Assembly (NCBI GenBank): GCA_035559275.1
Contig: DATMBN010000048.1
Span: 998-64,997 of the forward strand
DNA: 64,000 nucleotides
Direction: 5' to 3'
Origin: Burkholderiaceae bacterium
Lineage (GTDB): Bacteria; Pseudomonadota; Gammaproteobacteria; Burkholderiales; Burkholderiaceae_C
The notes below the pieces were generated by a model. That model ran no database searches. It was not told the origin of the DNA and saw nothing but the letters and a program-made list of their open reading frames with translations. Position 1 is the stretch's first letter. Each line of letters begins with the position of its first letter. Below are positions 3,611 through 18,503 of the stretch, piece after piece. Both the position numbers and the translations under genes were made by a program.

Positions 3611-3655
3611 ATTCTTCCGGCCGACCGGCCGCCAACCAAGCACGAAGATCCGTAG
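3611..3655 (-). promoter_or_regulatory. Putative activator box plus sigma70 promoter for the giant ORF
   Basis: Minus strand reads CTACGGATCTTCGTGC-TTGGTT-N17-AAGAAT. Confidence 0.55.
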
Positions 3656-3659
3656 GACC

Positions 3660-4691
3660 TCATGACACCCCTTGCGCCCACCGCAGCAACGTGGCCACCG
3701 GCGCGTACAGCGAACGGGGAATCTGCTGGTCCTCGGCGACCTCCTCGTACAGGCGCTCGGCCAGGGCCGGATCGGTCTCCATCGGCACCAGCACCTCCTT
3801 TGCCGCGCGGCGGATCTGCTCGGCCACGGCGCCCTCGCCCTTGGCAATCACCCGCGGCAGGTCGTGCTCGCCCAGGTACTGCAGCGCGACGGCCACGCGC
3901 GGCGAATGGATCACGGCCGAGGCGGCCCGCACGCGGTCCTGCAAGGCGAAGTACACCGTCTCGAAGTGCGCCTGACGGCGCCGCGACTGGTTGACCGGAT
4001 CGCCCTCGACCTCCTTGTGCTCGCGGCGCAGTTCCTCGATCGACATGCGCTGCTGCTTCATGAACTCGTAGTGCTCGTGCGCGTAGTCGACCATCGCCAT
4101 CAGCGCATAGATCACCGCGGCCCAGGCGAAGGTGACCATCATCGTGCGAGCCCCCACCGTCATCGCGGCCGCGGGGGATCCGTAGCCCAGGCGCAAGGCG
4201 GTGTCGAGGAAACCGCGGACGACCGCGAAGAGGAGCACGGCGATCAGCACCGTCTTGGCGCTCATCTTGAGCAGGTTCACCAGGTTGCGCGTGGAGAAGA
4301 TGCGTTGGAAGCCCTCGGCGGGATTGAGCCGGTTGATGTCGGGCTTGATCCTGGTCCAGGCCGCGACGCCGCCCACCTGGAAGAAGGAACCGACGATGCC
4401 CGCGACCGCGGCGATCGCGGCCAGGGCCACGACGCTCCAGGCCAGCACCTCGCCCGCGTGCAGCAGCAGCTCGAGGAAGCGGTCGTCCGGGCGGGTCAGC
4501 AGCGTGCGGCTGGTCGCGTGCAGCCACAGCTCGCGCACCATGCCAAAGCCCACGTCGGTCAGTGCCCACAGCGCGACCAGCACGGCGACGAACACGACGG
4601 TCGACGAGACGTCGCTGCTGAACACGACTTCGCCCTTCTTGCGCGCGTCGCGCAGGCGTTTCGGGGTGGGCTTCTGGTCCTTCTCGGCCAT
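3660..4691 (-). CDS. sctU: T3SS export apparatus switch protein SctU (YscU/HrcU family), lacking the canonical NPTH motif
   Basis: MAEKDQKPTPKRLRDARKKGEV N-terminus, four TM segments, KMSIEELRREHKEVEGDP-type linker; VIHSPRVAVALQY replaces VVxNPTHxAVALxY. Confidence 0.95.
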   Translation of the reverse strand: MAEKDQKPTPKRLRDARKKGEVVFSSDVSSTVVFVAVLVALWALTDVGFGMVRELWLHATSRTLLTRPDDRFLELLLHAGEVLAWSVVALAAIAAVAGIVGSFFQVGGVAAWTRIKPDINRLNPAEGFQRIFSTRNLVNLLKMSAKTVLIAVLLFAVVRGFLDTALRLGYGSPAAAMTVGARTMMVTFAWAAVIYALMAMVDYAHEHYEFMKQQRMSIEELRREHKEVEGDPVNQSRRRQAHFETVYFALQDRVRAASAVIHSPRVAVALQYLGEHDLPRVIAKGEGAVAEQIRRAAKEVLVPMETDPALAERLYEEVAEDQQIPRSLYAPVATLLRWAQGVS

Positions 4692-4710
4692 CGTGATCCT
4701 CCGGCTGCCG

Positions 4711-5493
4711 CTACAGCGCCCGGCGCAGGAACTCCAGCACGCCGTTCTCCGGCCGCAGGAACTGCTGCAGCGAGTCGTAGACGAAGAAGAGGAACAGCGC
4801 CAGCATCAGCGTGGCCAGCAGGCTCTTGAGCGGCTGGGAAAACACGAAGACGTTGAGCGACGGGGCCACGCGGCTGATGAGACCCATGCCCAGTTCGACC
4901 AACAGCAGTACCAGCACGACGGGCGCGGCGAGCTTGACGATCCACAGGAACAGGGTGTCGCCCTGGCGGACGGCGAACTGCTCCAACACCGCGCCCAGGT
5001 CCGGGAAGAACGACGCGACCGGCCACAGACGATAGGAGTCCACCACCACGCCCAGCATCGCGACGAGCCCGCCTGCGGCCACGAACAGCGTGATCACCAG
5101 CCAGCCGAGGAACTCCGCCGTGGGCCCGTTCTCGTGTCCGGCCACCGGGTCGAAGAAGGAGGCGTTCCCGGAACCGGTCTGGAAGTCGATCAGGTCACCC
5201 ACGCTCTGGATCGCCCAGATGAAGATGCCGAAGCCCAGGCCCAGCAGCAGGCCGATCAACGCTTCTTTGGCGGCGATCACGAGCCAGCCGATGACCGATA
5301 GCGCAGGCAGGTCGCCGGCGGCCGGCGACATGAAGATCGCGAGCATCAGCAGCAGACCGTTGCGCGCAATGCCGGTGATCATCCGGCCCGAGAGGAACGG
5401 CACCACCGCGAAGATCGCCAGCAGCCGGGGCAGCGTCAGCGCCGCCGCGGCGACCGTCTGTTCCAGTGCGGCCAGTTCGATGGGCCCGCTCAT
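4711..5493 (-). CDS. sctT: T3SS export apparatus protein SctT
   Basis: Hydrophobic 260-aa protein from ATG 5493, with AKEALIGLLLG, GDLIDFQTG and RVAPSLNVFVFSQPLK motifs. Confidence 0.93.
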   Translation of the reverse strand: MSGPIELAALEQTVAAAALTLPRLLAIFAVVPFLSGRMITGIARNGLLLMLAIFMSPAAGDLPALSVIGWLVIAAKEALIGLLLGLGFGIFIWAIQSVGDLIDFQTGSGNASFFDPVAGHENGPTAEFLGWLVITLFVAAGGLVAMLGVVVDSYRLWPVASFFPDLGAVLEQFAVRQGDTLFLWIVKLAAPVVLVLLLVELGMGLISRVAPSLNVFVFSQPLKSLLATLMLALFLFFVYDSLQQFLRPENGVLEFLRRAL

Positions 5494-5506
5494 GCTCCGC
5501 AGGTCC

Positions 5507-16756: not shown

Positions 16757-16761
16757 GGACG

Positions 16762-17415
16762 ATGGGCCTGCCCGAACCCCTCACCCTGGTCGCGCTGATC
16801 GTCGCCTTCGGCGTCGCGCCCTTCGTCGCGCTGATGGTGACGAGCTACACCAAGCTCGTGATCGTCTTCGGCCTGCTTCGCACCGCGCTCGGCCTGCAGC
16901 AGACCCCACCGAACATGGTGCTCAACGGCATCGCGATCGTGCTGACGATCTACATCATGGCGCCCGTGGGCATGGACGTCGCCGACAGCCTGCGCAACCG
17001 CAGCCTCGGGGCACCGGGCGAGACGATGAAGGACATCGTCACCATCCTCGAGACGGCCAAGGAGCCGATCAAGGAGTTCCTGCAGAAGCACACGCAGGAG
17101 CGGGACCGCCAGTTCTTCCTCAAGTCGGCGCAGAACATCTGGCCCAAGGAACGGGCCGACTCGCTGCAAGCCGACGACCTGATGGTGCTCGTGCCCAGCT
17201 TCACCTTGAGCGAGCTGACGCGCGCCTTCCAGATCGGCTTCATCATCTATCTGGTGTTCGTCGTCGTCGACCTCATCGTCGCGACCGTGCTCCTCGCGCT
17301 CGGCATGTCGATGATCGCGCCCACCACCATCTCGCTGCCGTTCAAGCTGCTGCTCTTCGTGATGCTCGATGGCTGGACGCGGTTGATCCACGGACTGGTG
17401 CTGTCTTACCGGTAG
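16762..17415 (+). CDS. sctR: T3SS export apparatus protein SctR
   Basis: TSYTKLVIVFGLLRTALGLQQTPPNMVLNG, PSFTLSELTRAFQIGF, ISLPFKLLLFVMLDGW. Confidence 0.97.
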   Translation: MGLPEPLTLVALIVAFGVAPFVALMVTSYTKLVIVFGLLRTALGLQQTPPNMVLNGIAIVLTIYIMAPVGMDVADSLRNRSLGAPGETMKDIVTILETAKEPIKEFLQKHTQERDRQFFLKSAQNIWPKERADSLQADDLMVLVPSFTLSELTRAFQIGFIIYLVFVVVDLIVATVLLALGMSMIAPTTISLPFKLLLFVMLDGWTRLIHGLVLSYR

Positions 17416-17473
17416 TGACGGGCGCTGCCCGCCGACCGATCACCGTCACGAAGGAAGGTGTGCAGGAATCGCT

Positions 17474-18406
17474 TCAGGCGACGGGCCGGGAGGGCCAGAT
17501 CGAGGCGGCCGCGGCGGCGTTCACCAGCTGCACCCGGTTGCGCACGCCGAAGTGCCGGCGCAGCTGGCGCATGTGATAGTCGATGGCATAGGCGCTCAAC
17601 CCCAGCTGCTCGGCGATGCCGCGGTCGCTGTGGCCCTTGGCCAGGAGGTCCAGGATCTCGATCTGCCGCGCCGACAGCGCCTGCCGCGCCGCCGAAACGG
17701 CAGGGCGGATCAGCGCATGGCGCGACAGCAGTTCGTGCATGCAGCACGCCAGCGTGAACGCCCCCTGCAGCACCTGGTCGCTGAGCCATTCGGCGCGCGG
17801 ATCGCTCGACAGCAGGCTCACCAGATAGCGCTCGTTCTGCCGCCTGGGGCCCGGCACGTCGAACGACACGCCCGAGCCCACGCCGCTGGCCCGCAGATCG
17901 TCCAGGTAGGCCCGCGCGCGGTCCGACCTCATCGTCCGATGGGCCGCCAGCTCGTCGACCGTCCATGCGATCGGCAGGCTGGTCTCGGTCGTGCCTTGAT
18001 AGAACGGATCGACCTCGTGATGCCGGCGACTGAAGTACCGGTGCAGCAATGTCGGGTTCGCATAGCTGGCGAGGAACGCGCGCGGATGCAGCTGCCGCCG
18101 CTCGACGGCGATGCTGCCGTAGACCATCCACTCGAACCCCAGGTCGCGCAAGGCGTTGCGCACGACCTCGCCACGCGCCCGGGCTCCGTTGGCACGGTGC
18201 AACTGCTCGGCCAGTCGCGGCAGCCGGAAGGCGGGCAGCTGCACCGCCGGGATCACGAGGTCGCTCTCCTCGTAGAACAGCACCGCCTGGCGACCGGTGG
18301 CCCCGTGGTCCGCGAGCCTGCGCAATGCGGACGCCGCGTCGTGGCCGTCGATGGCGGCCTGCGCGTCGGCGGAGGAGGAAGGTCTGCGGTGTGCCTGCCG
18401 TTCCAA
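17474..18406 (-). CDS. LuxR-family transcriptional regulator (autoinducer-binding domain plus HTH), no adjacent luxI (LuxR solo)
   Basis: Y-x8-DP-x13-W and SG motifs of the Autoind_bind domain; C-terminal LSARQIEILDLLAKG...IAEQLGLS HTH; TTG start with AGGGAAG SD. Confidence 0.9.
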   Translation of the reverse strand: MERQAHRRPSSSADAQAAIDGHDAASALRRLADHGATGRQAVLFYEESDLVIPAVQLPAFRLPRLAEQLHRANGARARGEVVRNALRDLGFEWMVYGSIAVERRQLHPRAFLASYANPTLLHRYFSRRHHEVDPFYQGTTETSLPIAWTVDELAAHRTMRSDRARAYLDDLRASGVGSGVSFDVPGPRRQNERYLVSLLSSDPRAEWLSDQVLQGAFTLACCMHELLSRHALIRPAVSAARQALSARQIEILDLLAKGHSDRGIAEQLGLSAYAIDYHMRQLRRHFGVRNRVQLVNAAAAASIWPSRPVA

Positions 18407-18457
18407 GACTGTCGCTTCCCTGGAGCCCGGCCCGAGGTCTCGGACCCGTCGCCACGG

Positions 18458-18503
18458 ATGCTAGGTTTCGCGAGATGGCAGGGTCAACAACGAGATCTCG
18501 TAG
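18458..18503 (-). promoter_or_regulatory. Putative activator box plus sigma70 promoter of the luxR solo (autoregulation)
   Basis: Minus strand reads CTACGAGATCTCGTTG-TTGACC-N18-TAGCAT; contains the 12-bp palindrome ACGAGATCTCGT. Confidence 0.65.

Follow-up and report, generated by a model that had tools for sequence, protein, structure and literature searches.

The window analysed here is a stretch of 64,000 nucleotides (C48:998-64997) from the draft genome of a Burkholderiaceae bacterium (3.87 Mb, 68.9% G+C, 105 contigs). Between 3.6 and 17.4 kb it carries a complete injectisome cluster, recognised with Pfam, that is, the genes encoding one type III secretion system (T3SS). The cluster is organised as two divergent operons, sctV...sctU and sctQ-sctR, with a giant open reading frame (ORF) after sctU and an adjoining luxR-type gene, whose product is the only transcription factor encoded next to the cluster in the window. 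This gene content, a full T3SS set together with a LuxR protein containing the Pfam domains Autoind_bind and GerE, is the one given by the first-pass annotation, which had been made from the letters of the DNA. That annotation had also placed a box in front of each of the four transcription units, and direct reading found the four boxes at those coordinates, each in the same setting of box, 6-nt -35 position, 17-18 nt spacer and xAnnnT -10 element. The comparisons described below make LuxR-family control of the injectisome likely, and the CTACG-N6-CGTAG boxes are probably genuine operators through which a T3SS-dedicated LuxR branch would activate it. The boxes, the predicted promoters with their transcription start sites (TSS) and the units that they precede are as follows.

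3..3545, minus strand: giant ORF, of which the N-terminal 1181 aa lie in the window; it reaches the contig start (1514 aa on C48)
3640..3655, minus strand: box 1, CTACGGATCTTCGTGC, of the giant ORF, 5 nt past the sctU stop
Pgiant, minus strand: -35-like TTGGTT 3634-3639; N17; -10 AAGAAT 3611-3616; predicted TSS near 3604
3660..15461, minus strand: main T3SS operon, sctV...sctU (Pfam); identical gene order at every orthologous locus
15555..15570, minus strand: box 2, CTACGAAGACTCGGTG, of the sctV...sctU operon
PsctV, minus strand: -35-like TTGCCG 15549-15554; N18; -10 TAGAGT 15525-15530; predicted TSS near 15518
15595..15610, plus strand: box 3, the perfect dyad CTACGCGTCCTCGTAG, of the sctQ-sctR operon
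PsctQ, plus strand: TCCGTA (no recognisable -35); N17; -10 TACGCT 15634-15639; predicted TSS near 15646
15629..17415, plus strand: sctQ-sctR operon, divergent from sctV (Pfam FliMN_C and FliP)
17474..18406, minus strand: luxR, 310 aa, convergent with sctR; Autoind_bind and GerE
18488..18503, minus strand: box 4, CTACGAGATCTCGTTG, of luxR
PluxR, minus strand: -35 TTGACC 18482-18487; N18; -10 TAGCAT 18458-18463; predicted TSS near 18451

The box is a 16-bp dyad with a CT-N12-AG frame, and 18 orthologous sites give the consensus CTACGAGTACTCGTAG. The predicted -10 elements put its centre at about -43.5 to -44.5; for the classical lux box, an inverted repeat of 20 bp, the centre is at -42.5 (PMC3376562). 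A simple scan of positions 3300-19300 found a single sigma-70-consensus promoter, the TTGACC-18-TAGCAT that abuts the luxR box. The longest sctQ ORF begins at TTG 15629, which precedes the predicted TSS near 15646, and its first 20 or so residues are not covered by the alignments to orthologues. GTG 15686, in frame and with an AAAGG Shine-Dalgarno-like sequence, is favoured as the likely true start of sctQ; sctR, which stops at 17415, has its likely start near 16760.

Orthologous clusters (SctV 69-78% identical, identical gene order) were compared in two genomes of the same genus (G010 and G011), in Variovorax paradoxus NBRC 15149 (G374/G101) and in G153, G167, G284, G347, G325 and G295, together with a more distant cluster in G272 and the metagenome contigs L149 and L150. 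Each orthologous sctV-sctQ intergenic region contains two boxes, one per operon. The layout on the sctV side is box-TTGnnn-N17/18-TAGAGT, as in CTACGAGAACTCGTGG-TTGATG-N18-TAGAGT (G153) and CTACGAATATTCGTTG-TTGCCG-N18-TAGAGT (G347); on the sctQ side it is box-N6-N17-TACGCT, with TAAGCT or TAGGCT at two loci, as in CTACGGTTTTGCGTAC-TTCCTC-N17-TACGCT (G153) and CTACGAGATCACGTAG-TTCCGT-N17-TACGCT (G325). The distance from box to -10 is kept in 12 orthologous sctV/sctQ regions, while the spacers are unrelated in sequence and the two boxes lie 38-84 bp from each other, which indicates that each box is tied to its own -10 and not to the other box. No -35 is conserved among the sctQ promoters of the compared genomes. 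A weak -10 with a box at strict spacing, but with no conserved -35, is what is typically seen at an activator-dependent promoter. LuxR orthologues 59-64% identical to the window LuxR are encoded convergently to sctR on four metagenome contigs, all four of which keep the luxR promoter (CTACGG(A/G)ATC(T/C)CGTTG, TTGACC or TTGCTG, N17/18, TAGCAT) around differing spacers. Conservation of the motif in orthologues, on which the first-pass annotation had made its proposal depend, is thus seen as fixed spacing in the 12 sctV/sctQ regions and in the four luxR promoters.

The promoter box proposed for the giant ORF is present in the window and proves to be lineage-variable: the box after sctU is strong in G284 (CTACGTGGACTCGTAG-TTGCGA-N18-TACTGT), degenerate in G010 (TTCCGAGAAGTCGTGG-TTGCAC) and absent in five genomes. 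In the latter (G153, G347, G295, G167 and V. paradoxus) 14-45 nt separate sctU from the start of the giant ORF, and such box-less giant ORFs are presumably read through from PsctV.

The frequency of the motif was assessed in the window and in the whole genome. Against an expectation of 0.74, the window contains 9 copies of the pattern CTACG-N4-YTCG; genome-wide there are 73 occurrences, 6 of them in the 15-kb cluster. The genome has just two copies of perfect CTACG-N6-CGTAG, at 15595 and 10771 of the window, and both lie within the cluster. The genome-wide scan proposed with the first-pass annotation was run with a position weight matrix (PWM) trained only on 18 sites that lie between sctV and sctQ in nine other genomes, which avoids circularity, and applied to both strands of the 3.87 Mb. 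The sites of the window took ranks 1 (luxR), 2 (a dyad inside sctD, described below), 3 (sctQ), 4 (sctV) and 6 (giant ORF), and just 10 positions in the genome score at least 17.

The association of box, regulator and secretion system was followed across 401 genomes from the GTDB family to which this one belongs (SctD at E <= 1e-20, LuxR at E <= 1e-30). The T3SS lineage is present in 11 of the 401, and relatives of the window LuxR in 14, which cover all 11; the subfamily thus occurs in 11/11 genomes with the T3SS and in 3/390 without it (Fisher p = 4e-19, uncorrected for phylogeny). In all eight contiguous cases the luxR genes share a contig with sctD, from which they are 7-25 kb away; they lie at the cluster's edge, where a convergent pair on the far side of the giant ORF is frequent. 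G096, from a different family of the same order, has a 56%-identical cluster with two LuxR homologues beside sctV. Of the three genomes that have the subfamily without the T3SS lineage, two contain perfect boxes beside their subfamily luxR genes, and the best SctN matches of these two are just 54-59% identical: in G199, CTACGAGAACTCGTAG stands between luxR and a desaturase gene, and in G436, CTACGGATATTCGTAG stands in front of a 1755-aa ORF adjoining a LuxR pair. The box therefore follows the regulator and not the secretion genes. The G199 box is itself part of a 34-bp perfect palindrome, GCCTCACCTCTACGAGAACTCGTAGAGGTGAGGC (L148:6090-6123), and the neighbouring gene encodes a fatty-acid desaturase.

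Other regulators were looked for in the same DNA. In agreement with the first-pass annotation, which had noted neither an HrpG/HrpX-type regulator nor a plant-inducible-promoter (PIP) box in the window, the PIP box pattern TTCGB-N15-TTCGB has 0 matches there, and the scanned window ORFs include no HrpX/HrpB gene and, according to Pfam, no AraC-, OmpR- or ECF-type regulator. Nor is any transcription factor outside the LuxR subfamily consistently linked to the compared loci. A LysR gene that adjoins a second luxR gene on contig C51 was considered as the source of the box binder and rejected, this gene being common only to the present genome and G011.

The window LuxR aligns over its full length with RhlR, LasR and CviR and contains Autoind_bind (2.8e-19, residues 80-220) and GerE (5.9e-13, residues 243-296); an N-terminal extension of about 60 aa is found in the proteins of the subfamily. 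Their recognition helix, (V/I)DYH(M/L)RQLRR(R/H)F, is kept throughout the subfamily and differs from those of LasR and RhlR. Two clades, p and m, separate in a tree of 24 homologues, with the window LuxR as a long-branch sister of clade m. The genome also encodes a clade-p paralogue (C51:6505-7596), 42% identical to the window LuxR, and this is the more widely conserved of the two paralogues. On C51 this gene adjoins the LysR gene, which is 69% identical to an ORF between sctU and luxR in G011, and C51:2-7596 also holds a truncated giant ORF, whose 3' part (1798 aa) is present and matches the giant protein of G167 at its C-terminus; the fragment gave no match to the giant proteins of G010 or V. 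paradoxus. With the G167 match and the synteny of the LysR gene with G011 as indirect support, C48 and C51 probably connect across the giant ORF's unassembled middle, in which case two luxR genes would bracket the island. Only clade p is present in G011 and V. paradoxus and only clade m in G284, G347 and G272, and boxes are kept in all of them, which suggests that either clade may suffice. Since the recognition helix is common to the subfamily, either paralogue, or both, could occupy the box.

In acyl-homoserine lactone (AHL) receptors the tryptophan equivalent to LasR Trp60 contacts the homoserine lactone. The window LuxR and 5/5 of its orthologues have Leu at this position, in a mapping that depends on the alignment; the Tyr, Asp, Pro and second Trp of the pocket (equivalents of LasR Y64, D73, P74 and W88) are retained in the window LuxR, and the first pocket Trp is retained in clade p and most of clade m. 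The ligand of the window LuxR may be an AHL, a modified signal or none. As to the description of this protein as an orphan or solo LuxR, it is right in that no synthase gene is adjacent (the neighbours of luxR are sctR and ssb, with no luxI), and has to be qualified in that the genome does contain a luxI, its only one, at C86:349-870, at the start of a 4.4-kb contig. A weakly related luxR is found at the very end of C89 (C89:74089-74694), and these two genes are probably a canonical pair split by the assembly.

G010 (3.66 Mb) has a third LuxR paralogue, far from its T3SS island (L133:8020-8920). The gene lies just downstream of a box promoter, CTACGAGAACTCGGTG-TTGCGA-N18-TAGAGT, which drives two small ORFs of 64 and 156 aa; these have no Pfam domain and are candidates for T3SS-linked substrates or chaperones.

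A mechanism can be proposed from these features. The window LuxR, the clade-p paralogue, or both would occupy the box, the dimer being placed at about -44, where, in the manner of class II lux- and tra-type promoters, it would abut or overlap the -35 hexamer. The bound dimer would recruit RNA polymerase to promoters that have no usable -35, PsctQ above all and, more weakly, PsctV and Pgiant, and recruitment would switch on the two divergent injectisome operons and the giant ORF. I infer from sequence that LuxR binds the boxes, that it activates rather than represses, and where the TSS lie. The regulon in this genome appears to consist of the cluster and its giant ORF only. The first-pass annotation had made the orphan LuxR the master activator of the T3SS; the conserved operators and the dedicated, flanking LuxR subfamily speak for that proposal, and the second paralogue on C51 argues against a single master. 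A two-paralogue, T3SS-dedicated branch is probably at work here, rather than one orphan regulator.

Several observations weigh against this interpretation. PluxR is near consensus without any activator, so that positive autoregulation can only be conjectured and the box could repress there; the box arms are CTACG and not the CTG...CAG of the canonical lux box; the distant locus of G096 has no PWM match, only a half-site-like CTACGAG upstream of sctV; the clade-p and clade-m luxR genes of other genomes mostly lack a box of their own; and the genomes of the co-occurrence sample are phylogenetically non-independent (9-10 genera).

One alternative makes the clade-p LuxR of C51 the sole binder of the box and activator of the T3SS, and the window LuxR a target and second-tier modulator, for example a ligand-insensitive or antagonistic one. 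Clade p is indeed the closer counterpart of the regulators of G011 and V. paradoxus, both of which have boxes without a window-type LuxR, the window LuxR has a long branch and has lost a pocket Trp, and the strongest box in the genome is on its own promoter. Even so this alternative is unlikely, as G284, G347 and G272, with only clade m, the sister clade of the window LuxR, keep boxes, and the window clade has a recognition helix that barely differs from the others and that is conserved among orthologues. An unlinked regulator, such as another GerE/NarL-type response regulator or a different dimeric helix-turn-helix (HTH) protein, might instead bind the box, with the luxR genes as co-regulated cargo. 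The box is unlike the known lux, tra and las boxes, and G096 has luxR genes with an undetectable box, both of which would fit such a binder; however, consistent linkage is seen for no other regulator, LuxR-subfamily genes have boxes nearby even where the T3SS lineage is missing, and a 16-bp dyad with CT...AG ends suits a GerE-HTH dimer, which leaves this explanation improbable.

The LuxR family also includes a class of repressors, the EsaR/ExpR type. Were the present proteins of this type, they would sit ligand-free on boxes flanking the -35 and be released by ligand. That the boxes abut the -35 position, and that PluxR and PsctV have usable TTGnnn and -10 elements, would agree with such a scheme, but in every genome PsctQ, without a -35-like hexamer, retains its box at strict spacing from the weak -10 TACGCT, and repression is accordingly very improbable. 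That the four boxes are a chance similarity in G+C-rich intergenic DNA, a fair suspicion for a short motif defined post hoc from four sites, is already refuted by the ranks obtained with the independent PWM, by more than 12 loci with fixed spacing and by the rarity of the motif genome-wide.

The proposed LuxR-box system was compared with known ones. The lux, tra and las boxes have CTG...CAG core half-sites. Like the LuxR, TraR and LasR systems, the present one combines a receptor of the Autoind_bind and GerE type with a dyad in a CT-N12-AG frame and an operator that abuts or overlaps the -35, and the gene of the regulator itself carries a box. It differs from them in the half-site, CTACG, in the recognition helix ((V/I)DYHMRQLRR(R/H)F as against NVNFHMGNIRRKF in LasR), in the N-terminal extension, in the Leu at the Trp60 position of the window clade, in having no adjacent luxI, and in the dedication of two paralogue clades to one secretion island. 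The distinct recognition helix fits the common, non-canonical half-site.

GerE-HTH regulators are also known in or beside other secretion islands, namely SsrB (SPI-2), HrpY, PrhJ and VjbR (the Brucella virB type IV secretion system, T4SS). In each case, as proposed here, a protein with a LuxR/GerE-type HTH is the island-linked activator of a secretion machine. By contrast with the window LuxR, SsrB, HrpY and PrhJ have receiver or other N-terminal domains and no autoinducer-binding domain, and VjbR controls a T4SS and flagella and not an injectisome. The Hrp2 T3SS of Xanthomonas, Ralstonia, Acidovorax and Xylophilus is governed by an HrpX/HrpB-PIP box regulon (PMC13436205). That regulon follows the same logic, in that T3SS operons and substrates are marked by a short box which keeps a set distance to a weak -10, and the -10 reported for X. 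rhododendri sctQ is TACGCT, the same hexamer as here (PMC13436205). The activator, by contrast, is of the AraC type, and the box is a direct repeat, TTCGB-N15-TTCGB, 30-32 nt from the -10.

The cluster matches the Burkholderia cepacia complex injectisome (BCI) type of Wallner et al. 2021 (PMC8565462), in which the sctQR and sctV operons diverge, a giant ORF exceeds 10 kb and a luxR-type regulator lies upstream, and which outside Burkholderia is found 'mainly in Variovorax' (PMC8565462). The distant G096 locus is of the BCI type as well. The nearest named relative of the present cluster is that of V. paradoxus NBRC 15149 (SctV 73% identical), and the divergent sctQ-R and sctV...U operons, a giant ORF of no assigned function and an adjacent luxR-type gene are all found here too. 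The giant ORF, however, follows sctU here and separates sctQR from the rest in the BCI type. A giant protein with a LysM domain and an adjacent lytic transglycosylase also belong to the description of the BCI type; LysM was undetected in the available parts of the giant ORF, the middle of which is absent from the assembly. The B. cenocepacia T3SS is likewise described in terms of bcscQ and bcscV operons, and a promoter-library study placed type III genes among the C8-HSL-responsive genes. The luxR-type gene of the BCI was said to be one that 'could hint toward' quorum-sensing control, without a description of operator or promoter architecture (PMC8565462), and none was found in the other literature searched for this system. 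The presence of a luxR-type gene beside such a T3SS is therefore already known, and what appears to be new is the operator itself.

A wider hypothesis, offered tentatively and with the odds against it, is that the proteins form an undescribed LuxR branch of two clades, one with a remodelled, probably non-AHL pocket, which with an operator of its own serves as the dedicated small-molecule switch of Comamonadaceae BCI-type injectisomes. With two receptors, a pair of signals could then be combined at shared promoters, such as an AHL of the cell's own and a cue from a host or another source. Injectisomes of the BCI type occur widely in the Burkholderia cepacia complex, in Variovorax and in their relatives, and their regulation, substrates and targets have barely been studied. 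With a defined operator in a fixed promoter geometry and a candidate receptor pair, the activating signal and the regulon become testable, and the PWM, together with the spacing to the -10, provides a genome-mining handle for co-regulated substrates in larger genomes. The operator also opens the question of how DNA specificity in the LuxR family diverged from CTG...CAG to CTACG...CGTAG.

The giant ORF starts 114 nt past sctU. Its N-terminus reads MLFLDAVRRVFS, after which comes a stretch of about 25 prolines (3440-3545 of the window, minus strand). Along about 1500 aa the protein is 36% identical to the product of a 3188-aa ORF downstream of sctU in G010, and homologues lie downstream of sctU in G153, G347 and G295 as well. 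No Pfam domain, LysM included, was found in the 1181 aa of the window and the 1798-aa C51 fragment, the middle of the ORF being missing from the assembly. The genes of the main operon, from sctV to sctU, are the following; beyond luxR lie housekeeping genes, namely ssb, an MFS transporter gene, recQ, uvrA and polysaccharide synthesis genes.

13386-15461, minus strand: sctV (Pfam)
13112-13384, minus strand: sctS (Pfam)
11397-13325, minus strand: sctC (Pfam)
10265-11392, minus strand: sctD (Pfam)
9918-10121, minus strand: orf67, needle/pilin-like, 67 aa
9418-9921, minus strand: orf167
8606-9406, minus strand: sctJ (Pfam)
7315-8490, minus strand: sctK/L (Pfam)
5999-7318, minus strand: sctN (Pfam)
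5507-5983, minus strand: orf158
4711-5805, minus strand: sctT (Pfam)
3660-4691, minus strand: sctU (Pfam)

Two further box-like sites lie within sctD.

10771..10786, either strand: the perfect dyad CTACGTATCCTCGTAG inside sctD, the second-best PWM match in the genome
10355..10370, minus strand: a weak match, CTACGAAGGTTCGGTG, at the sctD 3' end, 234 nt upstream of orf67 (PWM score 13.8)

The dyad at 10771-10786 brings four rare A-ending codons (CTA CGA GGA TAC GTA) into a gene with a GC3 of about 0.87. It has no -10 at the canonical distance on either strand and is absent from the orthologues; possible roles are those of an auxiliary, looping or antisense site. The match at 10355-10370 was considered as a promoter site for the needle gene and rejected, its conservation being confined to a strongly conserved block of sctD coding sequence, with no conserved -10; since coding constraint could explain this conservation, it is not claimed as a site. 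The weaker copy that had been proposed at 10212-10227, before the pilin gene, was not borne out (PWM score -6.7, not conserved).

Outside the cluster, box-like matches at C11:36534, C26:2274 and C100:61392 and on C44, C82 and C88 were examined as possible promoters and rejected, all of them lying within coding sequence. The top match outside the cluster, in coding sequence, is supplied by a 6-kb island (C11:34000-40000) of about 55% G+C, as against 69% for the genome, which contains small minus-strand ORFs of no assigned function.

Between sctD and orf67, at about 10150-10200 on the minus strand, lies a G+C-rich hairpin (CCCGCC...GGGCGGG). Hairpins of differing sequence are found 45-75 nt 5' of the needle gene at all nine compared loci, for example GGCGCCTTCGGCGCC in G010 and CCCACCG...CGGTGGG in L149, and at several loci GCATGGAAT precedes the hairpin. 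Such a hairpin may act as a 5' stabiliser or an attenuator for the high-copy needle subunit.

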